A DNA stretch of 64,000 nucleotides, taken from assembly GCA_963820035.1 (NCBI GenBank), contig CAWFYK010000002.1, positions 724,524 through 788,523 on the forward strand, in the 5' to 3' direction. Position numbers and translations under genes: made by a program. The stretch comes from an uncultured Actinomycetota bacterium (GTDB taxonomy: Bacteria; Actinomycetota; Actinomycetes; Propionibacteriales; Nocardioidaceae). Below, piece after piece: positions 3,961 through 55,196 of the stretch (position 1 is the stretch's first letter; each line of letters opens with the position of its first letter). The notes under the pieces were generated by a model, which worked only from the letters and a program-made list of their open reading frames with translations, was not told the origin of the DNA and searched no databases.

Positions 3961-3984
3961 CTCGAGTTGATCTAGACGTCAACA

Positions 3985-4192
3985 GCGCAGTGATGCGGCG
4001 GCTCTTCGGGGAAGCCGCGGTGACGTGGCGCCTCACCTCGGTCGAATGACATATCCACGCACCTGCGTTGATATGGCGGTTGGATCGGCAATCTGACCGC
4101 AACTTCCACGCACATGCGTGGATCCGTTCGCGAACGCCCGTGTGAGGCGCCAGGACAACGGATCGCGGCTCGAGAGCCGCTGCGTCACTGCG
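3985..4192. repeat. Head-to-head pair of an approximately 100-bp conserved module (P-module), each headed by an ATCCACGCA-NN-TGCGTGGAT-type palindrome
   Basis: Palindromes at 4051-4074 (ATATCCACGCACCTGCGTTGATAT) and 4105-4122 (TCCACGCACATGCGTGGA, perfect 8-bp arms). Each is followed outward by GTGAGGCGCCA(C/G)G...CAC and GAGCCGC(C/T)GC(A/G)TCACTGCGC blocks. A third copy lies at 22228-22318. Confidence 0.7.
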
Positions 4193-4517
4193 CCTTTTCA
4201 CCCCGAGGTCATCGCGAGTGACCTCTACTCCAGTGGCGGGACCACGGTGGGGTGGCTAGCATCGAAGTAATGGGTTGTGACGCTGCGGAGTTCCGCCAGT
4301 CAGGTGGGATCCGGAGGCTGGGCCAGTGAGGGCCCGCGCGCAACCCGACCCGATGGGCGGCCGACAGCTACACCTTCGGACGCGCCGACCGGGTCACTCT
4401 TCGGGCTACGCCGAGGGCTCCAGCAGACGACGAAGCAACTCGGCGCCCGACGATAAGACGGCCGCGGTGAGAGCCGGGTAGGTCGTCACGAAACCTGACC
4501 ATCGATTCGGCAACCAG

Positions 4518-5756
4518 TTGCCGAACAAGAAGGGAAGTGTCATGCCGGGAAACCGCGTAGTCGTATACAAGGGACCGGGCGAAGTGGCCGTCGAGAGCAC
4601 CGACTACCCCAAGCTCGAGCTGCCCGACGACGTAGCCAAGGGCATCGGGGTCAAGAAGAATGCTCCCCACGCCGCCATCCTCAAGCTCGTCACCACCAAC
4701 ATCTGTGGAAGCGACCAGCACATGGTCCGAGGGCGCACGACTGCGCCGGTCGGACAGACCCTCGGTCACGAGATCACCGGAGAGGTCGTCGAGGTCGGTG
4801 ACGACGTGCTGTTCGTGAAGGAAGGGGACATCTGCTCCGTCCCGTTCAACATCGCCTGCGGTCGATGCCGCATGTGCAACGAGGGTAAGACGGGGATCTG
4901 CCTGAACGTCAACCCTGCAAGGGCCGGGGCGGCGTACGGATATGTCGACATGGGCGGCTGGATCGGCGGCCAGGCGGAGTACGTCATGGTGCCCTACGCC
5001 GACTTCAACCTGCTCCGGTTCCCCGACCGGGACCAGGCCCTCGAGAAGATCCTGGACCTGACGATGCTCTCGGACATCTTCCCGACGGGCTATCACGGGG
5101 CCCACACGGCGGGCGTGACGAGCGGCTCCACCGTCTACGTCGCTGGGGCCGGACCGGTCGGCCTCGCCGCGGCATACTCCGCCCACCTCCTCGGTGCCGC
5201 AACCGTCATCGTCGGGGACATGAACCCGGAGCGGCTACGCCAGGCCGAGAGCTTCGGCTGCGAGACCGTCGACCTGAGCACGGGCGACGAGCTGGCCGAC
5301 CTCATCGCGAAGCTGCTCGGAGAACCGGAGGTCGACGCCGCCGTGGACGCTGTCGGCTTCGAGGCACGTGGCCACGGAGCCGACGCGGAGGAGGCGCCCG
5401 CGACCGTGCTCAACGACATCATGACGGTCGCTCGTGCCGGAGCCTCGCTCGGCATCCCCGGCCTGTATGTCACCGGTGACCCGGGCGGCATCGACGACAA
5501 CGCCAAAGTCGGCCAGATCGGTGTCAAGCTGGGTCTGGGCTGGGCAAAGTCGCACGCCTTCGTCACGGGCCAGTGCCCGGTGAAGCGCTACAACCGCCAG
5601 CTCATGAACATGATTCTGAGCGGCAAGGCCGAGATCGCGAAGGCGGTCAACGCGGTTGCAATCCCCTTGGACGACGCCCCGAAGGGCTACCGAGACTTCG
5701 ACAAGGGAGCAGCCAAGAAGTTCGTGCTCGACCCGCACGGGATGGTGCCTGCCTGA
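4518..5756 (+). CDS. fdhA: Glutathione-independent formaldehyde dehydrogenase (Zn-dependent MDR family)
   Basis: Near-colinear with Pseudomonas putida FdhA as I remember it (TNICGSDQHMVRGRTTA, VPFNIACGRCRMC, GYVDMGGWIGGQAEYV, VAGAGPVGLAAA). The start may instead be the second Met at 4542. Confidence 0.85.
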   Translation: MPNKKGSVMPGNRVVVYKGPGEVAVESTDYPKLELPDDVAKGIGVKKNAPHAAILKLVTTNICGSDQHMVRGRTTAPVGQTLGHEITGEVVEVGDDVLFVKEGDICSVPFNIACGRCRMCNEGKTGICLNVNPARAGAAYGYVDMGGWIGGQAEYVMVPYADFNLLRFPDRDQALEKILDLTMLSDIFPTGYHGAHTAGVTSGSTVYVAGAGPVGLAAAYSAHLLGAATVIVGDMNPERLRQAESFGCETVDLSTGDELADLIAKLLGEPEVDAAVDAVGFEARGHGADAEEAPATVLNDIMTVARAGASLGIPGLYVTGDPGGIDDNAKVGQIGVKLGLGWAKSHAFVTGQCPVKRYNRQLMNMILSGKAEIAKAVNAVAIPLDDAPKGYRDFDKGAAKKFVLDPHGMVPA

Positions 5757-5890: not shown

Positions 5891-6541
5891 CTAGGACAGG
5901 GTCGCGATGAAGTCGCTGTTGAACCCGAAGCACTGGTCGAGCCCAGCCCAGGTCGTGCAGTTGTTGAAGGCGCCGCCGTAGTTCTGCCAGACGTCGATGG
6001 CGCCGAGCGGAGCGTTCGTGGTCTCCCAGTACCAGCCACCCACGACGCCGTAGTCCATCGACCCCTGGACTGATGCGAAGTACTTGCCCTTCGTCAGCAC
6101 GACCTTCCTGATGTCGAGGCTCAGCACTGGGCTCGGGAAGTCGCCCCTGATGGTCCGCTTGGCGATGACCTTGCCCGGCAGTCCCTTCCTCGCCTTGTAG
6201 AACTTCACAGTGAAGCTGTCCGAAGGACCGGAGCCTCCGGCATAGACACCGGTGGCAGCAACGTTCGTAATGACGCACCTCCTCTTGACGGCGAAGTCGA
6301 AGGCGCCGATCGAGCTGTAGCCCGCGGGGTCCGCCGTCTTCGTCGAAAGGATGCCCGTGCCGGAGTCGGCGCCCGTCTGGCTGTAACAGGCCCCCTTCGC
6401 CGGGACGGCCGCCTGGTGTGAGACCGCATGCCGGGCGACGGCCGCGTCGGTCGAATGAGCGCTCGCCTGGCCGGCGAATGCGGTGGCGGCGATGAGCGCG
6501 GCGGCACTGACCCCCGCGAGGGACATGAAGCTGGGACGCAT
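5891..6541 (-). CDS. Secreted hypothetical protein
   Basis: Start chosen at MRPSFMSLAGVSAAALIAATAFAGQASA (signal peptide) with GGAG upstream. No family recognised. Confidence 0.55.
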   Translation of the reverse strand: MRPSFMSLAGVSAAALIAATAFAGQASAHSTDAAVARHAVSHQAAVPAKGACYSQTGADSGTGILSTKTADPAGYSSIGAFDFAVKRRCVITNVAATGVYAGGSGPSDSFTVKFYKARKGLPGKVIAKRTIRGDFPSPVLSLDIRKVVLTKGKYFASVQGSMDYGVVGGWYWETTNAPLGAIDVWQNYGGAFNNCTTWAGLDQCFGFNSDFIATLS

Positions 6542-9812: not shown

Positions 9813-10721
9813 ATGAAGGCAGTGCAGTTCGCAAGGTATGGCGGTCCGGAGGTCCTCGAGGTGGTCGACGTCGAAGAGCCGCACGCCGGTCCAGGGCAGG
9901 TCCGCATCGCGGTGAAGGCCGCCGGAATCAACCCCATCGACTGGAAGCTGCGAAGCGGTGCGTTGGCCGAGGCGATGCCGCTCACCCTGCCGGCCGGCAC
10001 GGGGCTGGATGCCGCCGGTGTCGTCGATGAGGTTGGCGAGGGAGTCACGGGCGTGGCCGTGGGGGACCCCGTCTTCGGGACGGCGGCACGTGGGGCGGTC
10101 GCGGAGTACACCGTCCTGAGGGAGTGGGTGCACAAGCCCGAAGGGATGTCGTTCGAAGAGGCGTCCGGTCTGCCCGTCGCCACCGAGACGGCCCGCCGAG
10201 CACTGAACCTGCTGGGCGTGCGCGCGGGTGACACGTTGCTCATCAACGGCGCCTCCGGTGGGGTCGGCCTGGCGACCATCCAGTTCGCGCGTGCCGCTGG
10301 AGCGAACGTCATCGCCATCGCGAGCGAGCCCAACCACGACTACCTTCGATCGCTCGGTGCCGTGCCGACGACGTACGGCGACGGCCTGGTCGAGCGGGTC
10401 AGGGCACTCGCCCCGGACGGGGTCGACCAGGCTTTCGATGTCGCCGGGTCCGGCGTACTCCCAGAGCTCGTCGAGATCACCGGTGATGCGAGCAAGGTGC
10501 TCACCATCGCCGACTACAGCGCCGAGCAGTACGGCGTGCGGATCACCGGAGGAGGCTCGGAAAGCGCGCCAGAAGGACGGCAGGAGGCCGCCGACCTCTT
10601 CGAACGCGGCCTGTTCACCCTTCCGGTCGCCGAGACGTTCGGCTTCGAGGATGTGGCAACGGCGCACGAGAAGAGCCAAGCCGGCCACGTCCGCGGCAAG
10701 TTCGTCATCACCGTTCCCTAG
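9813..10721 (+). CDS. NADPH:quinone oxidoreductase / zinc-type alcohol dehydrogenase superfamily protein
   Basis: MKAVQFARYGGPEVLEVVDVEEPHAGPGQVRIAVKAAGINPIDWK and LINGASGGVGLATIQFA. GAGGAG lies 6 nt upstream of ATG 9813. Confidence 0.8.
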   Translation: MKAVQFARYGGPEVLEVVDVEEPHAGPGQVRIAVKAAGINPIDWKLRSGALAEAMPLTLPAGTGLDAAGVVDEVGEGVTGVAVGDPVFGTAARGAVAEYTVLREWVHKPEGMSFEEASGLPVATETARRALNLLGVRAGDTLLINGASGGVGLATIQFARAAGANVIAIASEPNHDYLRSLGAVPTTYGDGLVERVRALAPDGVDQAFDVAGSGVLPELVEITGDASKVLTIADYSAEQYGVRITGGGSESAPEGRQEAADLFERGLFTLPVAETFGFEDVATAHEKSQAGHVRGKFVITVP

Positions 10722-10725
10722 CAGC

Positions 10726-10857
10726 CCGCCGAACCGTCACCTTCTTACCGCCGAACCGTCACCTTCTTACCGCCGAACCGTCACGTTCTTACCGCCGAAC
10801 CGTCACCTGCTTACCGCCGAACCGTCACGTTCTTACCGCCGAACCGTCAAGAAGTTC
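10726..10857. repeat. R22-A left arm, locus 1: 6 tandem 22-bp units CCGCCGAACCGTCACCTTCTTA
   Basis: Units start at 10726 + 22n. The last unit is the variant CCGCCGAACCGTCAAGAAGTTC. The array begins 4 bp after the qor-like stop codon. Confidence 0.95.
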
Positions 10858-10915
10858 CCGGCATGACGCCTCCGCGAGCAGCTCAAACAGCCGAGAGAAG
10901 AGATGGCGGCTGGAC

Positions 10916-11047
10916 TGCAAGAACCTGACGGCTCGACCGGAACAACCTGACGGCTCGACCGCAACAACCTGACGGCTCGACCGGAAGAACATGACGGCTC
11001 GACCGGAAGAACATGACGGCTCGAGGGTAATTACCTGACGGCTCGGC
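10916..11047. repeat. R22-A right arm, locus 1: 6 tandem 22-bp units GGAAGAACATGACGGCTCGACC (diverged inverse of the left arm)
   Basis: TGACGG anchor at 10926, 10948, 10970, 10992, 11014 and 11036. The last unit overlaps the 3' codons (RRAVR-stop) of the 11031..12317 ORF. Confidence 0.95.
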
Positions 11048-12317
11048 GAAGGCGAGCGACCGTCCGGCGTACGACCGGGTTGCGGCCGAGCCGCGCACGG
11101 ACCCCGGTCTGCCAGGAACGCGCGGTGGCCGGCCGGGCCCGCTCGTCCGCCACCAGCCCGTCGATCCGCTTCTGCTGACGCTCGACGCGTCGCAGCAGCT
11201 TGTCGCGCTCGGTCGTCAGTGCCTCGACCTGGTGACCGAGCTCGTCACCTTCCTGCCGAAGCTCGACCGCGTTGAGGACCATGCCGATGAGTCCCCCCGA
11301 CGCCGCCTGGAGCAGCTCCCGCTCGGTGGCCTCCGCCGGGTCGACGACATCGGACGGAGGATGCTCGGCTGGCACCAGCTCGGCCAGATCGCCTTCCACT
11401 CGGACGCCCGAAGTCTCGATCCCGGCGATCATCATGCGAGCGCGGTTGCGCACCCAGCCCTGCTGCTCGGGCGAGAGCGCGAAGCGCGGCTCCAGGCCGG
11501 CTCTGGTCGCGATGAGCGCTCCGCCCAGAGCGCCCCGGTAGCCATAAGGCTTCTCTGTTGCCATCCCCGGGTACTCGAGATTGAGCTGTCTCATCAGCTC
11601 GGCCGAGTGGGCGCCGAGCGACGAGTTGACCAGCGTCTCGGGTTGCTCGAGGCCCGTCATCGGAATCCCGAGCACCGAGCCGATGCGCCCGACGACGATC
11701 TCGGGAGTGGTTCCGGTGGGCGGCACCGTCACCACGGTGATCCGGTCGAGGGGGACCACCTGCTGCCATTGAGCGAAAATCGTCGTCACGTCGTGGACCT
11801 TCCAGAACCAGTCGCGCAGTCGAGTGGCGTCGCTCGCGGCCGCATCGCCGGATGGGGCATCCTCGTCGCCTGCCGGGGTGCCGTCAGAGCAGACGGCCGC
11901 CGCGAAGTCGTTCCAGCCGACGGTCTTGCCGCCCTTGATCGTCGTCTGCCAATGCGAGGGGATCAACTGGGCCGGATCCCGCACCGTGATGACGACGTTG
12001 AGCTCGACGTGCCTGAACCCATGCACGATGGTCCGGACCGAACGGGTTCCGCCACCGGCGATGAGCTCGTTGACGATCATCACGTCACCGTCGTGCTGGT
12101 TGACCTGGCGCACCAGCCGACGCCAGGTGTTGCCCCCCGGAGCGTCCGCCTTGGACATGCGCCCCAGCAGGTCCCGCACCGCGTCGTAACGGATGGTGCC
12201 GGCCACCCACAGCAACCCTTCCTCGGCAAGGCGTTGCGCGTTGAGCTCACCAACCTGTTGGACGTATGACGTCCCGGTCTTCATCTCGCCGATGTGCAGG
12301 AAGACCCGTCGCGCCAT
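11031..12317 (-). CDS. Hypothetical protein with a sulfotransferase-like N-terminal P-loop motif and a C-terminal coiled-coil-like region
   Basis: 428-aa ORF. HIGEMKTGTSYVQ resembles the 5'-PSB loop of sulfotransferases. The family call is tentative. Confidence 0.45.
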   Translation of the reverse strand: MARRVFLHIGEMKTGTSYVQQVGELNAQRLAEEGLLWVAGTIRYDAVRDLLGRMSKADAPGGNTWRRLVRQVNQHDGDVMIVNELIAGGGTRSVRTIVHGFRHVELNVVITVRDPAQLIPSHWQTTIKGGKTVGWNDFAAAVCSDGTPAGDEDAPSGDAAASDATRLRDWFWKVHDVTTIFAQWQQVVPLDRITVVTVPPTGTTPEIVVGRIGSVLGIPMTGLEQPETLVNSSLGAHSAELMRQLNLEYPGMATEKPYGYRGALGGALIATRAGLEPRFALSPEQQGWVRNRARMMIAGIETSGVRVEGDLAELVPAEHPPSDVVDPAEATERELLQAASGGLIGMVLNAVELRQEGDELGHQVEALTTERDKLLRRVERQQKRIDGLVADERARPATARSWQTGVRARLGRNPVVRRTVARLRRAVR

Positions 12318-14573: not shown

Positions 14574-15515
14574 TCAGGTGCCGATCGCGGGCTCGTCGAC
14601 GGTGGAGACCGTCAGCACCGCCTCGGTGATCCCGTCGAGGGCCTCGAGCCGATGCTCGAGAGTGCGGAGGGTGTGAGCGACGCTCGACTCGGCGTTGTCG
14701 CCGATGATGTCGACGCTGCCGACGACGTACATCTGGTTGGGCCCGATGAACACCATCCGTAGGAAGGTGACGTGGTCGACCTCGTCGTAGGAGTTGAGGG
14801 TGGCGATCGTGGCCGCCCGAGTGGCGTCGTTGACCGACTGCCCCACCAGGAACCGGCGGTTGCGGTCGATCAGCACGATCCCGATGACACCCAGCAGGAT
14901 GCCGACGAGGATCGAGCCGATCGCATCCGGGATCGGCGACCCGGTCAGCTGATGGGCCGCCACGCCAACGGCCGCGATCACCAAGCCGATGAGCGCCGCT
15001 GCGTCCTCGGCGAACACGGCCCGCAACGTGGGGTCCGACGTGGTGAGGGCGTGTTCCAGGATCTCCCGGTCGAGGTGGCTGGCCTCCTTCCGGGTCCGCC
15101 AGTACGCCTGCGCAAACGAGATCCCTTCGAGGATGAACGCGCAGCCGAGCACGACGTACGCGACCAGGAAGTGACCGCCCGGCTCCTGCCGGACCAGCTC
15201 CTGGATGCCGCGCATCACGGAGACGACGGCCCCCGCGGTGAAGAGGCCGAGGGCGGCGAACATCGACCAGACGTAGGCTTCGCGGCCGTAGCCGAGGGGG
15301 TGGGAGTCCGTCGGTCGGCCACGCCCGCGCCGGTCGGCGACGAGCAGGAACGACTCGTTGCCGACGTCCGCCCACGAGTGCGCGGCCTCCGCGGCCATCG
15401 AGGCGGAGCCGGTGATCAGCGCCGCGGCCGTCTTGGCGATCCCCACCAGGACGTTGGCCAGGAAGGCGACGACAACCGTGAGGCTGCTCTTGTCCAACCG
15501 CGGCTTGGGCGTCAT
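14574..15515 (-). CDS. Cation diffusion facilitator (CDF) family metal efflux transporter
   Basis: SASMAAEAAHSWADVGN and HPLGYGREAY motifs, with six predicted TM segments by eye. Confidence 0.8.
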   Translation of the reverse strand: MTPKPRLDKSSLTVVVAFLANVLVGIAKTAAALITGSASMAAEAAHSWADVGNESFLLVADRRGRGRPTDSHPLGYGREAYVWSMFAALGLFTAGAVVSVMRGIQELVRQEPGGHFLVAYVVLGCAFILEGISFAQAYWRTRKEASHLDREILEHALTTSDPTLRAVFAEDAAALIGLVIAAVGVAAHQLTGSPIPDAIGSILVGILLGVIGIVLIDRNRRFLVGQSVNDATRAATIATLNSYDEVDHVTFLRMVFIGPNQMYVVGSVDIIGDNAESSVAHTLRTLEHRLEALDGITEAVLTVSTVDEPAIGT

Positions 15516-16883: not shown

Positions 16884-18191
16884 ATGCCCACCACCTTTGA
16901 CTCCGACGCGGAGGCAGCGGGACTGTGCGCCTTCGTCGATGCGTCCCCTTCGCCGTTCCATGCCTGCACTGAGGCGGCCGCAGTCCTCGAGGCCAGCGGC
17001 TTCACGGCGCTCGACGAGACGGCCGGCTGGCCGCGCGAACCTGGCCGCTACTACACGACTCGCGGCGGCTCACTCGTCGCCTGGAGCACGGAGTACGCCG
17101 ATGGCCGCGCGACGCCGTTCCGCGTCGTCGGAGCCCACACGGACAGCCCCAACCTGCGGATCAAGCCACGCCCCGACGTCTCCCGCGCCGGCTGGCGGCT
17201 GCTCGGCGTCGAGGTCTACGGCGGTCCGCTGCTGAACTCCTGGCTCGACCGCGATCTCGGGCTCTCGGGGCGCGTCACTGTCCGGGGAGCGAGCGGCGTG
17301 GAGGAGCGGCTGGTCGCGATCAACGACCCGATCCTGCGGGTCGCGCAGCTCGCGGTGCATCTCGACCGCGAGGTCAACGAAGCCGGAGTGAAGCTCAACC
17401 CGCAGCAGCACCTCGCACCGATCTGGGGCGTTGGCACGGAGCCGGGCGACTTCCGCGCCATGGTCGCCGACACCGTGGGGTCCGAGCGTGACGACGTCCT
17501 GGGCTGGGACCTGATGACCCACGACCTCACCCCCTCGCGCCGCATCGGTCAGGACCGGGAGCTCATCGCGGCGCCTCGCCTCGACAACCTCGCCACGACG
17601 TACGCCGGGGTGAGGGCGATGGTCACGGCCGTCGAGACGGCTCCCGCGTCGCCCCAGGTGCTGGTGCTCGTCTTGTTCGACCACGAGGAGAACGGCAGCA
17701 TGTCCGAGCGCGGCGCCTTCTCGACGCTGCTGCCCGCCACGTTGGAGCGAATCGTGATCACCCGCGGCGGTGATCGGGAGGACTACCTGAGGGCCCTTGC
17801 CGGATCCGTCATCGCGTCCGGCGACATGGGTCACGCGACCCACCCCAACTACGCCGAGCGACACGAGCCACAGCACCAGATCGCCGTCAACGGCGGCCCG
17901 GTGCTGAAGGTCAACAACCGGCTGCGCTATGCGACCGACGCGCGGGGGACGGCGGCGTTCTCGCTCGCGTGCGCGCAGGCCGGCGTACCTGTCCAGCAGT
18001 TCGTCGGGCGCTCCGACATCCCGTGTGGCTCGACGGTCGGCCCGATGACGGCCGCCCTCACCGGAGCGACGACCGTGGACTTCGGGGCGGCTGCCCTGTC
18101 GATGCACTCGGCGCGAGAGCTGTGCGGCGCGGATGACCCCGCGATGTACGCCGCCGCCCTGGCCGCCTTCCTGTCCCCCGCCGCCCCTTGA
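16884..18191 (+). CDS. apeB: M18-family aspartyl aminopeptidase
   Basis: MPTTFDSDAEA..., SPSPFHA, VGAHTDSPNLRIKP, LFDHEENGS, SMHSARE. The ORF upstream of ATG 16884 is antisense to the permease and not protein-like. Confidence 0.8.
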   Translation: MPTTFDSDAEAAGLCAFVDASPSPFHACTEAAAVLEASGFTALDETAGWPREPGRYYTTRGGSLVAWSTEYADGRATPFRVVGAHTDSPNLRIKPRPDVSRAGWRLLGVEVYGGPLLNSWLDRDLGLSGRVTVRGASGVEERLVAINDPILRVAQLAVHLDREVNEAGVKLNPQQHLAPIWGVGTEPGDFRAMVADTVGSERDDVLGWDLMTHDLTPSRRIGQDRELIAAPRLDNLATTYAGVRAMVTAVETAPASPQVLVLVLFDHEENGSMSERGAFSTLLPATLERIVITRGGDREDYLRALAGSVIASGDMGHATHPNYAERHEPQHQIAVNGGPVLKVNNRLRYATDARGTAAFSLACAQAGVPVQQFVGRSDIPCGSTVGPMTAALTGATTVDFGAAALSMHSARELCGADDPAMYAAALAAFLSPAAP

Positions 18192-18244
18192 CCATCCGAG
18201 ACGTCCGGAAGTCTCGGATGGTGGTGCCGGAAGTCTCGGATGGT
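18191..18244. repeat. Minimal R22-B element: one inverted unit plus two direct units that form a perfect hairpin between convergent genes
   Basis: ACCATCCGAGAC (18191-18202), loop GTCCGGAA, GTCTCGGATGGT (18211-18222), then a second direct unit to 18244. It fills the whole gap between the apeB stop (18189-18191) and the marR-like stop (18253-18255). Confidence 0.85.
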
Positions 18245-18252
18245 TGGGGGGG

Positions 18253-18837
18253 TCAGGGGTCGAGGTTCTCCAGGCCACGGATCGCGACCTCGAGGAGCTC
18301 CGCCAGCTGGGCACGCTGGCGCTTGGTGAGACAGGCGAGTACGTCGGACTCGAGCATGTCCGACTCCCGGATCGCGCTACGGAAGAGCTCCCAGCCGAGG
18401 TCGGACAGCACGACCCGCACGCGGACCCGGTTCTCCGGGTCGGTCGAGCGGGTGACCAGTCCGCGGGCGGTCATCCGGTCCAGCCGATGCGTCATCGACG
18501 ACGGCGCGACGTTGGCAGCGTCCGCGAGCTCGCTCGGCGTACATCCTCGGCCGCCCTGATCGCGCACCAGAGTGCTCATCACGGACCACTCCCCCGCGGA
18601 GATGTCGAGGTCCGCTAGCTGCCGGTCGTACCACTGGTTGAGGCGCCTGGCGAGGCCGTGTACGGCGGTGATCACGCGCTGCACCGACTCGTCGCCGCCG
18701 GCGGCGACATAGACCGCCACATCCTGACGGTGCGCCTCGGAGAGGGAGGTCGCCGTGGACGGGGAGCCGGCCGGCCCGGGCGAGCCGCCCGACAACGGCG
18801 CGGGTGAGCGCCGAAGAGCCGTCCGCTTGCGCGCCAT
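18253..18837 (-). CDS. MarR-family transcriptional regulator
   Basis: ...LARRLNQWYDRQLADLDISAGEWSVMSTLVRD...PSELADAANVAPSSMTHRLDRMTARGLVTR. Start set at MARKRT (18837) because the longer N-terminus is encoded by an AT-rich stretch. Confidence 0.8.
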   Translation of the reverse strand: MARKRTALRRSPAPLSGGSPGPAGSPSTATSLSEAHRQDVAVYVAAGGDESVQRVITAVHGLARRLNQWYDRQLADLDISAGEWSVMSTLVRDQGGRGCTPSELADAANVAPSSMTHRLDRMTARGLVTRSTDPENRVRVRVVLSDLGWELFRSAIRESDMLESDVLACLTKRQRAQLAELLEVAIRGLENLDP

Positions 18838-22196: not shown

Positions 22197-22227
22197 CTTT
22201 GGCCCGGTTTCCCTGGTCAGCTCGGCA

Positions 22228-22318
22228 ATATCAACGCAGGTGCGTGGATGTGTTCCGCAGCCCAGCGTGAGCCGCCACGTCACACGAGTATCGCGGGAGC
22301 CGCTGCGGTCACGGCGCC
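22228..22318 (+). repeat. Third copy of the P-module (palindrome ATATCAACGCAGGTGCGTGGAT plus two conserved blocks)
   Basis: 22228-22249 matches the reverse complement of 4051-4074 at 22 of 24 positions. GTGAGCCGCCACGTCAC (22267-22283) and GGGAGCCGCTGCGGTCACGGCGCC (22295-22318) match the blocks at 4019-4035, 4142-4159 and 4171-4192. Confidence 0.7.
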
Positions 22319-22381: not shown

Positions 22382-22572
22382 AAAACTCTCGGATCGTCGT
22401 ACCGAAACTCTCGGATCGTCGTGCCGAAACTCTCGGATCGTCGTGCCGAAACTCTCGGATCGTCGTACCGAAACTCTCGGATCGTCGTACCGAAACTCTC
22501 GGATCGTCGTGCCAAAACTCTCGGATCGTGGTGCCGAAACTCCCGGATCGTGGTGCCGAAACTCTCGGATCG
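22382..22572 (+). repeat. R22-B single-arm array: 9 tandem 22-bp units (GAAACTCTCGGATCGTCGTACC / ..GTGGTGCC)
   Basis: TCGGATCG anchor at 22389 + 22n (n=0..8; unit 8 carries TCCCGG). The last unit runs straight into the stop codon of the GroES-like gene (22573-22575). Confidence 0.95.
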
Positions 22573-22914
22573 TCAGAGGTAGAGGCCGGTGGCGCCTTCT
22601 TCGACGCGTTCGGAGGCGACGGCGTGCAGGTCGCGCTCGCGGAGCAGGATGTACATGTCGCCGCGCACCTCGACCTCGGCCTTGTCCTCGGGGTCGAAGA
22701 GCACCCGATCGCCCGCCTCCACGGTGCGGACGTTGGCCCCGACACCGGCCACCCGCGCCCAGGCGAGCCGGCGGCCCATCATCGCAGTCGCCGGGATGAC
22801 GATCCCGGCCGAGGACTTGCGCTCACCGGCCTCGGCGTCGAGCTGGACGAGCACCCGGTCGTGGAGCATCCGGATCGGCAGCTTCTCGACCGGAGTTGGT
22901 GTGTTCTTCGTCAC
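22573..22914 (-). CDS. GroES-like co-chaperonin family protein (non-canonical)
   Basis: IRMLHDRVLVQ..., SAGIVIP, GDRVLF, GDMYILLRERDLHAV follow the GroES pattern. It is not adjacent to a groEL. Confidence 0.55.
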   Translation of the reverse strand: MTKNTPTPVEKLPIRMLHDRVLVQLDAEAGERKSSAGIVIPATAMMGRRLAWARVAGVGANVRTVEAGDRVLFDPEDKAEVEVRGDMYILLRERDLHAVASERVEEGATGLYL

Positions 22915-23778: not shown

Positions 23779-23861
23779 GCCAGAGTGGTGGAATTGGCAG
23801 ACACGCGGGCTTTAGGTGCCCGTGCCCTTTGGGCGTGAGGGTTCGAGTCCCTTCTCTGGTA
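23779..23861 (+). tRNA. tRNA-Leu (anticodon UAG), class II with a long variable arm; no encoded CCA
   Basis: Acceptor GCCAGAG/CTCTGGT, anticodon stem CGGGC/GCCCG with loop TTTAGGT, variable arm GCCCTTTGGGCG, T-arm GAGGGTTCGAGTCCCTT. Confidence 0.9.
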
Positions 23862-32986: not shown

Positions 32987-33054
32987 GGCGCCGACCCTAT
33001 CGCCGGGCTCGAGACGGGCCGGACCCGATCGGCCGCGCCCATCAGGGGCCCCTG

Positions 33055-33100
33055 CCCGGTGGCCAGCCCGGTGGCCAGCCCGGTGGCCAGCCCGGTGGCC
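33055..33100. repeat. 12-bp tandem repeat CCCGGTGGCCAG, about 3.8 copies
   Basis: Units at 33055, 33067 and 33079, with a partial unit at 33091. Lies in the rph / ECF-sigma divergent intergenic region. Confidence 0.9.
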
Positions 33101-33149
33101 ATATCCGGTCGCCGCGCATCGCCGGCTCGGCGGCCCCGGACGAACTGCC

Positions 33150-33191
33150 GTGACGGGTTTGGCGTGACGGGTTTGGCGTGACGGGTTTGGC
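33150..33191. repeat. 14-bp tandem repeat GTGACGGGTTTGGC x3, immediately upstream of a -10-like GATAAT
   Basis: Units at 33150, 33164 and 33178. GATAAT at 33203-33208 sits 6 nt before the GTG start of the sigma factor (33215), suggesting a leaderless mRNA. Confidence 0.85.
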
Positions 33192-33751: not shown

Positions 33752-34386
33752 GCGACCCGCTGGACATCCTGCGACGTGAACCGAGCGCCGTCTTCCCCGA
33801 CCCGGAGTTCGCCGACCGGCTGCGCGCACGGCTCACGCGCGCCCTCGACCCCCAGGAAGCCGACTATCACCTAGGAGCAGACATGAGTCCCACCCCCGCG
33901 TCCTCGACCGCCAGTCAACCTGCCGAGACGGCAAGGCCGGCCGAGAGGGACGCGGCCGAGGCGGCAACGCCGGCCGAGGCGGCAACGCCGGCCGAGGCGG
34001 CAACGCCGGCGATGGTGCCCTACCTCGCCGCCCAGGGCGCTCGAGAGGCCATCGACTGGTACACCGACGTGTTCGGCGCCACCCTCGCCGGCGACCCGAT
34101 CGTGATGCCCGACGGCCGCATCGGCCACAGCGAGCTGCACATCGGACGAGCCGTCATCTACCTCTCCGATGCACACCCCGAGATCGGTGTTGTCGCGCCG
34201 ACGGCGGGCGAGGCCTCGGTCAGCCTGATGCTGACAGTCGACGACGCGGACGCCGTACTCGCTCGTGCACAGCGAGCCGGTGGCCGAAGCGACCGAGAGC
34301 CCTACGACGCCTACGGGCGGCGCAACGCGTGGATGATCGACCCGTTCGGGCATCGCTGGGGACTGAACAGCCCGATTCGAGGCTGA
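33748..34386 (+). CDS. VOC (glyoxalase/PhnB-like) domain protein with an N-terminal extension, translationally coupled to the sigma factor
   Basis: ATGA overlap with the sigma stop. The C-terminal half (MVPYLAAQGAREAIDWYTDVFGA...HSELHIG...IYLSDA...WMIDPFGHRWGL) is PhnB/VOC-like. Confidence 0.7.
   Translation: MSDPLDILRREPSAVFPDPEFADRLRARLTRALDPQEADYHLGADMSPTPASSTASQPAETARPAERDAAEAATPAEAATPAEAATPAMVPYLAAQGAREAIDWYTDVFGATLAGDPIVMPDGRIGHSELHIGRAVIYLSDAHPEIGVVAPTAGEASVSLMLTVDDADAVLARAQRAGGRSDREPYDAYGRRNAWMIDPFGHRWGLNSPIRG
33955..34008 (+). repeat. In-frame 18-bp tandem repeat x3 (AEAATP) in the linker of the VOC protein
   Basis: GCCGAGGCGGCAACGCCG at 33955, 33973 and 33991. Confidence 0.9.
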
Positions 34387-34434
34387 CGGTACGACGGCCC
34401 CAGGCCCTGCGGATTCGTCCGGTCACGACGCAAC

Positions 34435-34660
34435 GCAACCATCCGAGAGTTTCGGCACCACCATCCGAGACTTCCGGCACCACCATCCGAGAGTTCCGGT
34501 ACGACGATCCGAGACTTCCGGCACCACCATCCGAGAGTTCCGGCACCACCATCCGAGAGTTCCGGCACGACGATCCGAGACTTCCGGCACCACCATCCGA
34601 GAGTTCCGGCACCACCATCCGAGAGTTCCGGTACGACGATCCGAGACTCCCGGCATCGGC
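34435..34660. repeat. R22-B composite copy 1, left arm: 10 tandem 22-bp units (ACCACCATCCGAGAGTTCCGGC type)
   Basis: ATCCGAG anchor at 34441 + 22n (n=0..9) with no phase slips. Two sub-types are interleaved (ACCACCATCC / ACGACGATCC). Confidence 0.95.
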
Positions 34661-34924
34661 ATGGCCGGCTGCGGGGTCCCCTCTGTCAAGCGGCGTGCGT
34701 TGGTCGGGACGTGAAGAACAGCGGTGACGGCGGCTTTCGAGCTGCTCGTGTTGGTATGGCGCCGCGCGTCTGGGCCGGTGAACACAATCACGTTCGCAAA
34801 CAAAGAAGTTCGGCGCCAGTGCGACGGAACCACCTCGAGGGCCGTTGCGTCACTGCCGTTGTTCACGTCCCGAGCAACGCACGCCGCCTGAAGGAAGCGA
34901 CCCGCAATCGGGCTGTGCCGCAGG
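34661..34924. other. R22-B 264-bp core, copy 1 (internally palindromic, non-coding)
   Basis: Identical by eye to 41403-41666. Contains 43-nt imperfect inverted arms around a 118-nt, less GC-rich centre. Confidence 0.85.
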
Positions 34925-34925
34925 G

Positions 34926-35227
34926 TCGGATCGTGGTGCCGGAACTCTCGGATCGTCGTACCAAAACTCTCGGATCGTCCTACCAAAACTCTCGGATCGT
35001 GGTGCCGGAACTCTCGGATGGTCCTGCCAAAACTCTCGGATCGTACGTACCAAAACTCTCGGATCGACGTGCCAAAACTCTCGGATCGTCCTACCAAAAC
35101 TCTCGGATCGTCGTACCAAAACTCTCGGATCGTCGTACCAAAACTCTCGGATCGTGGTGCCAGAACTCTCGGATCGTGGTGCCAGAACTCTCGGATCGTG
35201 GTGCCAGAACTCTCGGATGGTCGGGAG
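34926..35227. repeat. R22-B composite copy 1, right arm: one partial plus 13 tandem units (GGAACTCTCGGATCGTGGTGCC type)
   Basis: TCGGATCG anchor at 34948 + 22n. A single 23-bp unit shifts the phase by +1 from 35059. The array ends 18 bp before the MBL stop codon. Confidence 0.95.
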
Positions 35228-35245
35228 GTAGCAGAGCAGGCTGGG

Positions 35246-36004
35246 TCAGAGGTGGTAGGACAGGCCGGGGCGCGCCACCGACAGCGCGCCGGTGAAGTGC
35301 GGCTCGGCGTCGGCAAGCACCCGGTCGCGGTCGACCCAGGGCTGGACGTGGGTCAGCAGCAGCTGACCGGCGCCGGCGCGCGTGGCGATTTCGGCCGCCT
35401 CCCGCCCCGACATGTGCAGGTGCTCGGGCTTCTCCCCGTTCTCGAGGAACGTCGCCTCCGCGAGCAGCAGGTCGCAGCCGACGGCGATCGACTCCAACGC
35501 GTCGCACGGTCCGGTGTCACCGGAGTAGACCAACGTCCGCTCGTCGGCGGTGACGCGGATCGCGTAGGCGTCCACCGGGTGGTCGACGTTGGTGGTGTCG
35601 ATGCGGAACGGGCCGATGTCGACGGGCTTGCCGTCGTACTCGCGGAAGTCGAACTCGGCGGTCATGCCCGGCTCGGGGGCGATGTCGTAGGCACGCGCCA
35701 TCCGGCCGGCCACCCCCGGTGGACCGAAGACCGGGATCGAGCCCAGGTGGCCGCTCGGGTGGTATTTCCGCACCACATAGAAGCCGCAGAGATCGAGGCA
35801 GTGGTCGGCGTGCAGGTGAGTGAAGGCCACCGCGTCGATGGTGCGGAGGTCGACGTAGTTCTGCAGCGCGCCGAGGGCGCCGCTGCCGAGGTCGAGCAGC
35901 AACCGGAAGTCGCGACCGTGATACGCCGTCTCGACCAGGTAGCACGAGGCCGGCGAGTCCGGGCCGGGAAAGGAGCCGGAGCAGCCGACGACGGTGAGCT
36001 TCAT
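35246..36004 (-). CDS. MBL-fold metallo-hydrolase (Rv1339-like)
   Basis: [38 protein letters not shown]. The start ATG overlaps the murI stop (ATGA). Confidence 0.8.
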
Positions 36005-40952: not shown

Positions 40953-40956
40953 TACC

Positions 40957-41402
40957 CCGACGATCCGAGACTTTCGGCACCACCATCCGAGAGTTTTGGT
41001 ACGACCATCCGAGAGTTTCGGCACCACCATCCGAGAGTTTCGGTACGACGATCCGAGAGTTCCGGCACCACCATCCGAGAGTTCTGGCACCACCATCCGA
41101 GAGTTCTGGTACGACGATCCGAGAGTTCCGGCACCACGATCCGAGAGTTCCGGCACCACCATCCGAGAGTTCCGGCACCACCATCCGAGAGTTCCGGCAC
41201 CACCATCCGAGAGTTCCGGCACCACCATCCGAGAGTTCCGGCACCACCATCCGAGAGTTCCGGCACCACCATCCGAGAGTTCCGGCACCACCATCCGAGA
41301 GTTCCGGCACCACCATCCGAGAGTTCCGGCACCACCATCCGAGAGTTCTGGCACCACCATCCGAGAGTTCTGGCACGACGATCCGAGACTTCCGGCACCA
41401 CC
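40957..41402. repeat. R22-B composite copy 2, left arm: 20 tandem 22-bp units
   Basis: ATCCGAG anchor at 40963 + 22n (n=0..19) with no phase slips. Eight consecutive units (41161-41336) are identical. The array starts 4 bp after the pncB stop. Confidence 0.95.
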
Positions 41403-41666
41403 ATGGCCGGCTGCGGGGTCCCCTCTGTCAAGCGGCGTGCGTTGGTCGGGACGTGAAGAACAGCGGTGACGGCGGCTTTCGAGCTGCTCGTGTTGGTATG
41501 GCGCCGCGCGTCTGGGCCGGTGAACACAATCACGTTCGCAAACAAAGAAGTTCGGCGCCAGTGCGACGGAACCACCTCGAGGGCCGTTGCGTCACTGCCG
41601 TTGTTCACGTCCCGAGCAACGCACGCCGCCTGAAGGAAGCGACCCGCAATCGGGCTGTGCCGCAGG
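41403..41666. other. R22-B 264-bp core, copy 2
   Basis: Base-for-base equal (by eye) to 34661-34924 at a constant offset of 6,742. Inverted arms at 41429-41471 and 41590-41632 are 38/43 complementary. Confidence 0.85.
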
Positions 41667-41828
41667 GTCGGATCGTGGTGCCGGAACTCTCGGATCGTGG
41701 TGCCGGAACTCTCGGATCGTGGTGCCGGAACTCTCGGATCGTACCAAAACTCTCGGATCGCCTACCGAACTCTGGATCGCTACAAAACTCTCGGATCGTA
41801 TCGTCGTACCAAAACTCTCGGATCGTCG
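41667..41828. repeat. R22-B composite copy 2, right arm: about 7 units, progressively degenerate
   Basis: TCGGATCG at 41668, 41690, 41712 and 41734 is in phase. After that come irregular units at 41753, 41771 (TCTGGATCG), 41791 and 41818. Confidence 0.85.
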
Positions 41829-41829
41829 A

Positions 41830-41850
41830 GGGAGGGGAGGGAGGGGAGGG
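41830..41850 (+). other. G-quadruplex-type motif GGGAGGGGAGGGAGGGGAGGG
   Basis: Five G3-4 runs separated by single A residues, between the right arm and the DUF1697 stop codon (41851-41853). Confidence 0.6.
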
Positions 41851-42402
41851 TCAGGTGAGGGTGGGGGACGGCGCGGCCCACTTGTCGGCGAGGGCGGTGA
41901 CGACCTTCCAGTCGCGGCTCGTCGCGGCGAGCCCGGCTAGCTTCTCGATCCGCGCGTTGTTGGCCTTGGCCTCGTGGGAGGGCTTGGCGAGCCACATGTG
42001 GAGGTCGCGGCCGACCAGCTGCAGCCGCTCGCCGTCGACGTCCCAGCCGTTCAGTCGCTTCGTCGCCTCCGCTGCAGGCTCAGACCGCAGGAAGCTCAGA
42101 TAGTGCCGGGCGTCGTCGCCCAGCGGGTTGTCCGGGGCGGACTCGACGATGGCCCGGAGCTGCTTCGGCGTCCGCACCAGGGCCGGCACGGCGAACCCGA
42201 GCTGCTCCTCCAGCGCCGTCTCCATCATCGTCTCCACCTTCGCGGTGGACCTGGCCCGCGAGACGACGCACACGTTGCCGCTCTGGATGTGCGTCTCCAC
42301 CTCCGTGAAGCCGGCGTCGACGAGATGACCACGGAGCGCCTCCATCTTCACGAAACGGCCGCCCACGTTGACCGCTCGGAGGAACGCGATGTACGTCGCC
42401 AT
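41851..42402 (-). CDS. DUF1697-domain protein
   Basis: MATYIAFLRAVNVGGRFVKMEALR...VETHIQSGNV. The part of ORF 41851..42600 upstream of this Met is not needed. Confidence 0.7.
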   Translation of the reverse strand: MATYIAFLRAVNVGGRFVKMEALRGHLVDAGFTEVETHIQSGNVCVVSRARSTAKVETMMETALEEQLGFAVPALVRTPKQLRAIVESAPDNPLGDDARHYLSFLRSEPAAEATKRLNGWDVDGERLQLVGRDLHMWLAKPSHEAKANNARIEKLAGLAATSRDWKVVTALADKWAAPSPTLT

Positions 42403-46893: not shown

Positions 46894-47047
46894 CCGTCGA
46901 GCCGTCACCTTCTTACCGCCGAACCGTCACCTTCTTACCGCCGAACCGTCACCTTCTTACCGCCGAACCGTCACCTTCTTACCGCCGAACCGTCACCTTC
47001 TTACCGCCGAACCGTCACCTTCTTACCGCCGAACCGTCAAGAAGTTC
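46894..47047. repeat. R22-A left arm, locus 2: 7 units (1 degenerate, 5 perfect CCGCCGAACCGTCACCTTCTTA, 1 terminal variant)
   Basis: Perfect units start at 46916 + 22n (n=0..4). The terminal variant CCGCCGAACCGTCAAGAAGTTC (47026-47047) is the same as at locus 1. Confidence 0.95.
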
Positions 47048-47090
47048 CCAGTACGACGCCCCGCGCGGGAGCGTCATATCGTTGGCCGAC

Positions 47091-47288
47091 GGAACAAACC
47101 TGACGGCTCGACCGGAAGAACATGACGGCTCGACCGGAACAACCTGACGGCTCGACCGCAACAACCTGACGGCTCGACCGGAACAACCTGACGGCTCGAC
47201 CGGAAGAACATGACGGCTCGACCGGAAGAACCTGACGGCTCGACCGGAACAACCTGACGGCTCGACCGGAAGAACATGACGGCTCGCC
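47091..47288. repeat. R22-A right arm, locus 2: 9 units GGAAGAACATGACGGCTCGACC / GGAACAACCTGACGGCTCGACC
   Basis: TGACGG anchor at 47101 + 22n (n=0..8). The array ends 5 bp before the hppD stop codon (47294-47296). Confidence 0.95.
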
Positions 47289-47293
47289 GGAGG

Positions 47294-55038: not shown

Positions 55039-55097
55039 GCGCACCATCCTCCACCGACCGTCTCGAAGGCACGGACCTGCTGGACCATGCTGGACTG

Positions 55098-55154
55098 CGG
55101 TAGAGGCCATCAGCGAAGTGCACGTCGCGGGTCAAGGCGAGCCTCATCGCCTGT
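55098..55154 (-). promoter_or_regulatory. Fluoride riboswitch (crcB RNA motif)
   Basis: Minus-strand RNA: ACAGGCGAUGAGGCUCGCCUUGACCCGCGACGUGCACUUCGCUGAUGGCCUCUACCG. It shares GGCGAUGAGGC.CGCC and CUGAUGGCCUCUAC with the Thermotoga petrophila fluoride riboswitch as I recall it. Located about 60 nt upstream of the crcB-DUF190-crcB operon. Confidence 0.85.
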
Positions 55155-55196
55155 GCAACGAGTCTGCCCCAGACCACGGGGCTAGGCAAGCGAGAG

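Follow-up and report, generated by a model that had tools for sequence, protein, structure and literature searches.

REPs and the REP-associated tyrosine transposase (RAYT) are reportedly the subject of a study by Nunvar et al. in 2010. The MITEs (miniature inverted-repeat transposable elements) such as Correia, ERIC and Nezha are small, non-coding and multi-copy sequences with inverted ends, which are present or absent at orthologous sites. In the REPIN-RAYT system, short non-coding repeats are scattered in intergenic gaps, often at the 3' ends of genes; one chromosomal and largely vertically inherited gene is flanked by its cognate repeats in inverted orientation, and paralogs are each paired with a distinct repeat sequence type (Bertels & Rainey 2011, PMC3116915). 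The eukaryotic Foldback and Galileo transposons (PMC3573991, PMC4079207) have long terminal inverted repeats made of tandem sub-repeats, and many of their copies are gene-less and self-folding. In the AbiE type IV toxin-antitoxin systems (AbiEi, Rv2827c), several repeats of ~23 bp lie beside the gene of the DNA-binding protein (PMC7319586). Features of all these systems were found in a mirror-image repeat block, here called copy 1, and its relatives. Copy 1 lies in a 64-kb stretch of a contig from an uncultured actinobacterium of the Nocardioidaceae (CAWFYK010000002.1, positions 724,524 to 788,523), which was analysed as a whole and is termed the window. We consider it fairly probable that copy 1 is a gene-less, non-autonomous member of a chromosomal element family of Nocardioidaceae-type actinobacteria, of which the full-length members carry a gene for an AbiEi-Vsr protein. 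REPIN-RAYT would then be the closest analogy in logic, and a Foldback-type transposon the closest in anatomy.

Copy 1 fills the gap between two Pfam-supported genes, a glyoxalase/VOC open reading frame (ORF) that ends at 34386 and a metallo-beta-lactamase (MBL) ORF on the minus strand that ends at 35246. Its parts are listed below.

34387 to 34437, plus strand: apparent remnants of decayed units plus filler, from the VOC stop codon (34384-34386) to the first clean unit
34438 to 34655, plus strand: left arm of copy 1, 10 forward 22-bp units of the ATCCGAGAGTTCCGGCACCACC type (Tandem Repeats Finder, anchors)
34656 to 34925, unstranded: core of copy 1, a non-coding hairpin of ~264-270 bp (alignment, BLAST, fold)
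34926 to 35223, minus strand: right arm of copy 1, ~13.5 reverse-complement-type units with one 23-bp step (Tandem Repeats Finder, anchors)
35224 to 35245, unstranded: 22-bp filler up to the MBL stop codon (35246-35248, minus strand)

The mirror-image block is real. A preliminary description of this DNA had proposed 10 forward units with ATCCGAG anchors at 34441 + 22n and no slip, and both the anchor positions and Tandem Repeats Finder agreed (34438-34655, period 22, 9.9 copies, 88% matches, with a higher-order period of 66 bp). The reverse-complement array with one 23-bp unit, proposed there as well, was recovered (34926-35223, period 22, 13.5 copies, 88% matches), with its anchors on the other strand from 34925 to 35218 and its sole 23-bp step between 35035 and 35058. 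In the window, the two-anchor pattern gave 52 matches, compared to 0.06 expected from shuffles. The ~50 bp from the VOC stop to the first clean unit are apparently decayed units; CGGTACGACG, an exact unit end, lies directly 3' of the VOC TGA, and the final VOC codons with the stop (ATTCGAGGCTGACGGTACGACG) are unit-like. The two arms are 82-91% complementary over 99-176 nt and each of them is a tandem array, not a single repeat; the earlier description of the locus as a composite imperfect palindrome is right. The view that the block fills the gap between two convergent stop codons without a credible gene also stands, since the ORFs have no family match: a 297-aa minus-strand ORF and a 55-aa ORF in the interior of copy 1 were without a Pfam match, and none was found in the short cores.

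The core of copy 1 contains an inverted repeat (34657-34729 and 34848-34920) and folds as RNA into a nearly perfect hairpin (-173 kcal/mol, z = -9.8). Because the core itself is a hairpin, the whole of copy 1 folds as one stem, and the entire 793 nt as single-stranded DNA formed one hairpin (-282 kcal/mol, z = -20.7). The long hairpin, suggested earlier, is not a feature of the family, as the cores of other gene-less members (L088 and L076; L and P numbers denote our loci and proteins) were unstructured.

The core had been taken for unique, which was wrong: it recurs with 100% identity at 41402-41667, in a second full copy. Further members were found in the window, some with the same unit type (B) and some with another (family A).

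40955 to 41404, plus strand: left arm of copy 2, 20 forward units, beginning 3 nt after the TAG of the nicotinate phosphoribosyltransferase (NAPRTase) gene (Tandem Repeats Finder, anchors)
41405 to 41667, unstranded: core of copy 2, 100% identical to the core of copy 1 (alignment, BLAST)
41668 to 41828, minus strand: right arm of copy 2, with ~7.5 reverse units that have in part decayed, then GGGAG filler to the DUF1697 stop codon at 41851
22383 to 22574, minus strand: half element of 8.7 reverse units, the last of which abuts the stop of a GroES-like gene (TGA followed by CGATCCGAG on the strand of the gene)
18192 to 18252, unstranded: mini element of 61 bp, 1 forward and 2 reverse B-type units without a core, exactly filling the gap between convergent stops (18189-18191 and 18253-18255)
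10726 to 11045, unstranded: family A copy 1, in which 5.6 forward units (CCGCCGAACCGTCACCTTCTTA) and 6.3 reverse-type units surround a 57-bp core
46894 to 47291, unstranded: family A copy 2, in which 6.6 forward units and 9.2 reverse-type units surround a 50-bp core, with 2 nt left to the stop codon of an HPPD-like gene

Copy 2 (40955-41828) sits between the NAPRTase and DUF1697 genes. The two full copies, 793 bp and ~870 bp in size, have identical cores but different arrays and unrelated gene contexts, and neither has a Pfam-supported ORF. The identical cores show a recent duplication. Both copies of family A show a systematic difference between their left and right arms (CACCTTCTTA versus CAGGTTCTTC/CATGTTCTTC), and the final unit of the first copy contains the stop codon of a minus-strand gene at 11031-12317. 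In a relative (L078), a family-A array (14687-14766) occupies the position 3' of the HPPD-like gene that is orthologous to window 46894-47291. Arrays alone account for ~3% of the 64-kb window. Beside copy 2, a G-rich GGGAG/GAGGGAGGG micro-repeat occupies 41828-41862, between the right arm and the DUF1697 gene; it enters the 3' end of the latter, where it codes for part of a C-terminal tail (AAPSPTLT) that the relatives lack. A 428-aa protein encoded beside family A copy 1, P-loop/sulfotransferase-like by eye, was considered as a partner protein and discarded; it had no Pfam match and no array association elsewhere. The core was also considered as a remnant of a nuclease gene, and no tblastn or blastn similarity was found.

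This anatomy differs from that of the known bacterial repeats. The units are contiguous, head to tail with a period of 22 and without the unique spacers of a CRISPR array, which had been said before. A REP unit is an imperfect palindrome of ~20-35 bp and alternates in REP, BIME and REPIN arrangements, whereas the units here are non-palindromic, run head to tail and switch orientation once, at the core. Compared to REPINs, there are arrays of 1 to 20 copies of 22-bp units and no conserved REP-like tetranucleotide. MIRU-type minisatellites have units of 40-100 bp within operons, overlapping stop and start codons; here the units are of 22 bp, mostly in convergent gaps, and form mirror pairs. The likeness to MITEs extends to the small size, the non-coding sequence and the copy number (two full, one half and one mini element in the window), but the inverted ends are tandem arrays of variable length in place of a single terminal inverted repeat. 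No description of the element was found in the literature or in the Rfam, Pfam, NCBIfam, PADLOC, PHROGs, plasmid and phage libraries, and it fits no named repeat family that we could find.

The layout is conserved in related genomes, one of the checks proposed earlier. In all members a forward array is followed by a middle part and a reverse array; the middle part is missing in two members (L017, L026) and ranges from tens to hundreds of bp, up to ~1 kb, in the others. The outer array ends are mostly 0-10 nt from a neighbouring stop codon, with a recurring junction of TGA followed by C(G/C)ATCC. The arrays are genuine and not assembly artefacts, as the architecture recurs across many assemblies made independently, two of which are complete genomes. 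In pattern scans, B-type units came up, among the matches listed, in three Propionibacteriales metagenome-assembled genomes, one Actinomycetota genome and soil metagenomes. Neither 72,556 plasmids nor 50,697 phage records held a match to copy 1 in a distant-mode BLAST, and an exact 24-mer from the core had none in metagenome contigs of the Joint Genome Institute. Rfam at gathering score gave no hit in any window element, and no intrinsic-terminator-like or sigma-70 promoter-like site was found. The first genome-wide pattern, three ATCCGAG anchors at period 22, was too permissive, and many of its matches were unrelated 11- or 22-bp arrays in other phyla and phages. Among them were unrelated phage and proteobacterial 22-bp arrays with ATCCGAG (L003 4919-5071; L005 1664-1750; L001, L004 and L006, which are IMG/VR contigs; L030 5682-5763), picked up because the pattern was permissive. 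Their units hold an internal inverted repeat, TCCGAG-n4-CTCGGA, and resemble classical iterons or operators.

The relatives of the window NAPRTase are named Nocardioidaceae or Propionibacteriales, and in some of them the sites of the two full copies are empty. In L076, a syntenic relative with an 83% identical NAPRTase, 10 bp separate the VOC gene from the MBL gene, and the NAPRTase gene shares 29 bp with the DUF1697 gene. L077 has an array-free gap of 58 bp. In all compared genomes, conservation of the flanking proteins stops at the same residues. As the sites in L076 and L077 are empty, both full window copies were gained or lost since the divergence of these genomes. At another pair of convergent stop codons, L076 carries a mirror element of its own, built of GACCATCCGCCCCTTCCGACCC units.

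The middle parts of ~1 kb in three relatives (L081, L040 and, in decayed form, L075) encode homologous proteins. We looked up 385 homologs at E <= 1e-5, mostly from Nocardioidaceae, in their contigs and examined nine gene loci. In all nine, the AbiEi-Vsr gene (~305 aa) is flanked by mirror arrays with a period of 21-22; the gene is intact or frameshifted in eight and decayed in one. The loci are given below, with the leader, which is the stretch between the forward array and the start of the gene, where a DnaA-box-like 9-mer was found.

L081 (also L095 and L082, one locus in three strains): units GACCATCCGCGGGTTCCCGCCC; leader 2734-2790
L040: units CGCGATCCGAGGGTTCTGGTTG; gene frameshifted
L075: units CCATCCGAGACTTCCGGGTCGA; gene decayed
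L100: units ATCCGCGAGTTCTGGTCCGCTC; protein P0136; leader 9940-10000
L106: reverse array CGGATGGGCGCACCACAACCGA; paralog P0168, on the contig of L100; leader 4940-4990
L103: units GAGGAGAGGATCCCGGCCCCTC, 10.9 and 3 copies; Solicola gregarius CP094970, protein P0186; leader 5930-5975
L104: units ACGCTCACACGCGAGTAGCACC; Nocardioidaceae bacterium SCSIO 66511; leader 5900-5960
L105: units CCGCTCGTCCGTCACGTATGT, 21 bp; Antricoccus suffuscus; leader 3915-3960
L107: units CCCTCGCGAGTCACTGCGTCAC; leader 2950-2965

The unit sequences are fully different between some lineages, yet they match on both sides of each gene, and the paralogs P0136 and P0168, on one contig, each have their own unit type. No further array of this kind was seen at the gene loci beyond the flanking pair. 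With a matching pair at each gene and no other array there, the gene and its arrays form one unit. In strains with a 97-98% identical protein, the copy number of the arrays differs (4 versus 3 units upstream and 4 versus 2 downstream), while the outer boundaries are fixed. The gene adjoins relA in five lineages (L040, L081, L100, L104, L107), and in four lineages the array starts 0-4 nt past the relA stop codon with unrelated unit sequences. The leader motif is exactly TTGTCCACA in L081 and L105 and exactly TTATCCACA in L100 and L106, with 1-2 mismatches in L103, L104 and L107. It could be a promoter or operator element, or could reflect real DnaA control; the gene-less copies in the window are without it.

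Two further observations were made at these loci. L106 and L100 lie on one 138-kb contig (ena:ERZ27251491:k141_2558825), where the two diverged paralogs bracket ~13 kb of metabolic genes in the order DUF349, P0168, P0136, relA, with these genes between the two paralogs; the site has a single copy in other genomes. This suggests an element that was duplicated and holds captured or inserted cargo. In L082 (1550-2158), the nuclease has lost residues 113-230 through a clean in-frame deletion of 354 bp, compared to the near-identical strains L081 and L095. The deletion may be one stage on the way to gene-less derivatives.

According to profile matches and a structural model, the ~305-aa protein combines a winged-helix module of the AbiEi type (N-terminal) with a nuclease domain of the Vsr/DUF559 type (C-terminal). 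Pfam gave weak AbiEi_4 and REase_MTES_1575 matches on the protein itself; its homologs have PF09407, PF13338 and PF18741 and are named DUF559 or very-short-patch-repair endonuclease. The PADLOC AbiEi models, and of the AbiE pair only these, matched residues ~15-200 with E-values down to 6e-12. An AlphaFold model built from 35 sequences had a predicted local distance difference test score (pLDDT) of 91.8 and a predicted template modelling score (pTM) of 0.88. The best match of the model in the PDB was the S. agalactiae AbiEi antitoxin (E = 1.6e-6, probability 1.0), and the C-terminal domain superposed with a target-normalised TM-score of 0.73 on the Vsr-like catalytic domain of the homing endonuclease I-Bth0305I; it also superposed on a DUF559 protein. 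Seven residues of catalytic type are invariant in the 35 sequences, which are 47-69% identical to P0121; in P0121 numbering, their conserved order is D231 ... E242-x-D244-G245 ... H249 ... D258 ... R262. A profile search returned 493 cluster representatives with a cut-off of E <= 1e-30 and 8,344 with one of E <= 1e-10. The absence of a transposase, as first described, thus holds for the window itself and not for the full-length relatives, which encode a nuclease.

This protein sets the family apart from its nearest analogues. The RAYT protein is an HUH/Y1 (IS200/IS605-like) transposase, whereas here an AbiEi winged helix is joined to a Vsr-type nuclease; the way in which the repeats flank the gene is analogous. 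MITEs share their ends with an element that encodes their transposase, to which the gene loci here may be comparable: the unit type of the window flanks the decayed AbiEi-Vsr gene in L075, and intact genes are flanked by related unit types. Unlike in MITEs, the partner protein is outside the known transposase families and no target-site duplication was seen. The Foldback and Galileo elements are eukaryotic and have a P-element or MULE-type transposase and target-site duplications. With AbiE systems the family shares the DNA-binding fold and the position of the repeats, as 21-22-bp repeats, putative binding sites, adjoin the AbiEi-fold gene. It differs from them in that no AbiEii (DUF1814) toxin neighbour was found in the gene tables of L100 and L103-L107 and a nuclease is C-terminal, so that this is not a bicistronic abiEi-abiEii operon; the repeats lie on both sides of the gene, the arrays reach 20 units, and gene-less arrays occur elsewhere in the genome. 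I-Bth0305I, a Vsr-like EDxHD homing endonuclease (PDB 3r3p), shares the nuclease fold and, presumably, the selfish-DNA context, but the gene here is outside any intron or intein and has another DNA-binding module. We know of no homing endonuclease gene with flanking repeat arrays. DUF559 proteins were listed in another study as enriched near predicted invertible inverted repeats (PMC9881135).

The link between the window and the gene-carrying loci is given by the units. The window B unit is 82% identical to the units that flank the decayed gene of L075, with the first 17 nt (CCATCCGAGACTTCCGG) the same, and 77% identical to the L081 units; the 99th percentile of random 22-mers is 64%. AbiEi and Rv2827c bind 23-bp repeats with one monomer per repeat, and Rv2827c occupies four at once (PMC7319586). 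We suggest that the 22-bp units are binding sites for the AbiEi-Vsr nuclease and that the window copies are MITE- or REPIN-like derivatives. The preliminary description had seen a protein-binding array in the 22-bp period, and this has indirect support from the related arrays, which always bracket an AbiEi-type gene. The reading with the best support is an element, selfish or semi-domesticated, that pairs a nuclease with binding arrays and has gene-less derivatives. Each unit would bind one monomer of the cognate protein, so that the ends of the element become coated in opposite orientation, and the nuclease domain would cut at or near the arrays. Host repair or recombination would then copy or move the element, only insertions in the tiny gaps between gene ends would survive, and the arrays would grow or shrink through slippage or unequal exchange. 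As there is no homolog of the gene in the window, the window copies would be non-autonomous. They have a hairpin of 264 bp in place of the gene and would be mobilised in trans by a protein from another part of the genome, in the way that MITEs rely on a transposase and REPINs on a RAYT.

Several points weigh against this reading. A tblastn search found no homolog of the AbiEi-Vsr gene in the 64-kb window, and cognate proteins are assumed for both of its unit types, B (ATCCGAGAGTT/ATCCGAGAGTTCCGG) and A (CCGTCACCTTCTT/CCGTCAC). The family-A unit is just 62% identical to the Antricoccus unit of L105, so that family A is weakly linked to the gene-carrying loci. Similarity of the proteins did not covary significantly with that of the units in seven pairs (Spearman 0.29, p = 0.21). 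The neighbourhood of relA looks like long vertical inheritance or a domesticated gene and not like active hopping. No target-site duplication was recognisable at the junctions of the window copies or of copies in relatives, where decay of the outermost units could mask a short one. Gene conversion between elements could also yield identical cores without recent transposition. To our knowledge, a Vsr-type nuclease has no strand-transfer activity; as it alone cannot integrate DNA, a host repair pathway must be invoked.

Among the other explanations, we regard as unlikely, yet worth weighing, the idea that the arrays are host cis-elements at gene 3' ends which aid transcription termination between convergent genes, the protein being a domesticated regulator and not a mobility factor. 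Termination could come about by C-rich Rho loading on the sense transcript, by a roadblock of bound AbiEi-Vsr protein or by a long hairpin. It would fit the closeness of most outer array ends to stop codons (0-10 nt), the sense orientation of all five solitary arrays that abut a stop, the strong hairpin formed by the whole window element, and the synteny of the gene with relA across genera, where unrelated units begin 0-4 nt after the relA stop in four lineages. However, the cores of other members are not hairpins, no intrinsic-terminator-like site was found, and some arrays stand 5' of genes or separate genes that are co-directional or divergent (L067, L035, L039, L051, window 46894). Orthologous gene pairs in relatives do without the element. 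C exceeds G in the sense-strand unit in 14 of 20 unit types, but the skew is absent or reversed in the other six, several window arms included; Rho loading (a rut site) was demoted to a rival because of this incomplete skew. It is rather improbable, too, that the arrays are passive satellite DNA, made by slippage, foldback repair and gene conversion with no dedicated protein, and that the link to the gene is incidental or reflects expanded operator repeats. The rapid change in copy number, the near-palindromic form of the window element, as foldback repair produces, and the lack of a visible target-site duplication are consistent with such an origin. AbiEi-type proteins autoregulate through repeats in their own promoter (PMC7319586), and the upstream array could be a mere operator. 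Nevertheless, arrays stand on both sides of the gene and not at the promoter alone at nine of nine loci, and the period of 22 and the mirror layout persist despite complete turnover of the unit sequence. B-type units are also conserved across organisms with NAPRTase ~80% identical, which is unexpected for unconstrained intergenic DNA.

Iteron-type origins, with direct repeats of 17-22 bp spaced ~22 bp apart, are known from plasmids of the R6K, pSC101, P1 and F types. The preliminary description had likened the 22-bp spacing to plasmid iterons and ParR/parC-type centromeres. That the arrays are such repeats, bound by an initiator or a ParR-like protein, we consider very improbable. The likeness lies in the head-to-tail units ~22 bp apart and, in the gene-carrying relatives, in a forward array that adjoins a winged-helix protein gene with a DnaA-box-like 9-mer nearby (TTGTCCACA in L081 and L105, TTATCCACA in L100 and L106). 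Against it, the elements are chromosomal, mirror-paired and present in several copies within the 64 kb, all amid housekeeping genes, and the window copies have neither a DnaA-like box nor an AT-rich unwinding region. The plasmid and phage records, as said, held no match, and the protein has no Rep or Par family match in Pfam or NCBIfam. A ParR/parC-type array lies upstream of a parMR or parAB operon; the window arrays are flanked by VOC, MBL, NAPRTase, DUF1697, GroES and HPPD genes, no par or rep gene lies near them, and no par genes were seen in the gene tables of the loci.

The element is apparently undescribed. Its kind is that of inverted-end elements with non-autonomous derivatives, and the chance that it stands for a new class is substantial. 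A more specific version is possible but doubtful in our view: a new prokaryotic class of mobile or selfish elements outside the known transposase superfamilies, in which the protein would polymerise on the end arrays, host-repaired cuts would move or copy the element into gene-end gaps and generate the arrays, and gene-less pairs would parasitise a single vertically inherited gene and come to occupy a few per cent of some genomes. Fill-in of staggered cuts one unit apart could add one 22-bp unit per cycle. Actinobacteria have non-homologous end joining and recombination pathways. If the nuclease-plus-binding-array reading is true, a whole family of intergenic repeats in soil actinobacteria would be the footprint of such a system, and many 'hypothetical' or DUF559 proteins would gain a role. 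The logic would run parallel to that of REPIN-RAYT and MITE-transposase pairs, from unrelated parts. The family would also be a bacterial case of tandem-array inverted ends, otherwise known from eukaryotic Foldback-type transposons; we know of no bacterial counterpart of Foldback or Galileo. The arrays are fast-evolving markers of the variable-number tandem repeat kind and likely sources of assembly breaks in Nocardioidaceae genomes.

Other features of the window were noted. A 58-bp motif (ATATCAACGCAGGTGCGTGGAT...) occurs at 4020-4077 and at 22225-22283 in inverted relative orientation with 84% identity. One copy is in a non-coding stretch of lower G+C content (3700-4370), which also contains TCCACGCACATGCGTGGA, and the other is beside the half element; the motif probably serves as a regulatory site. 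The ORF called as the VOC gene has, upstream and inside, perfect tandem repeats of 12 bp (x4, 33054-33101) and 14 bp (x3.1, 33149-33191) and an 18-bp repeat (x5.1, 33922-34010). The true start of this ORF may be downstream, because its first 170 residues have no Pfam match. Three RNA features reached the Rfam gathering score.

23779 to 23861, plus strand: tRNA gene
55094 to 55160, minus strand: fluoride riboswitch, beside crcB genes as in L076
62565 to 62739, minus strand: cyclic di-AMP (c-di-AMP) riboswitch

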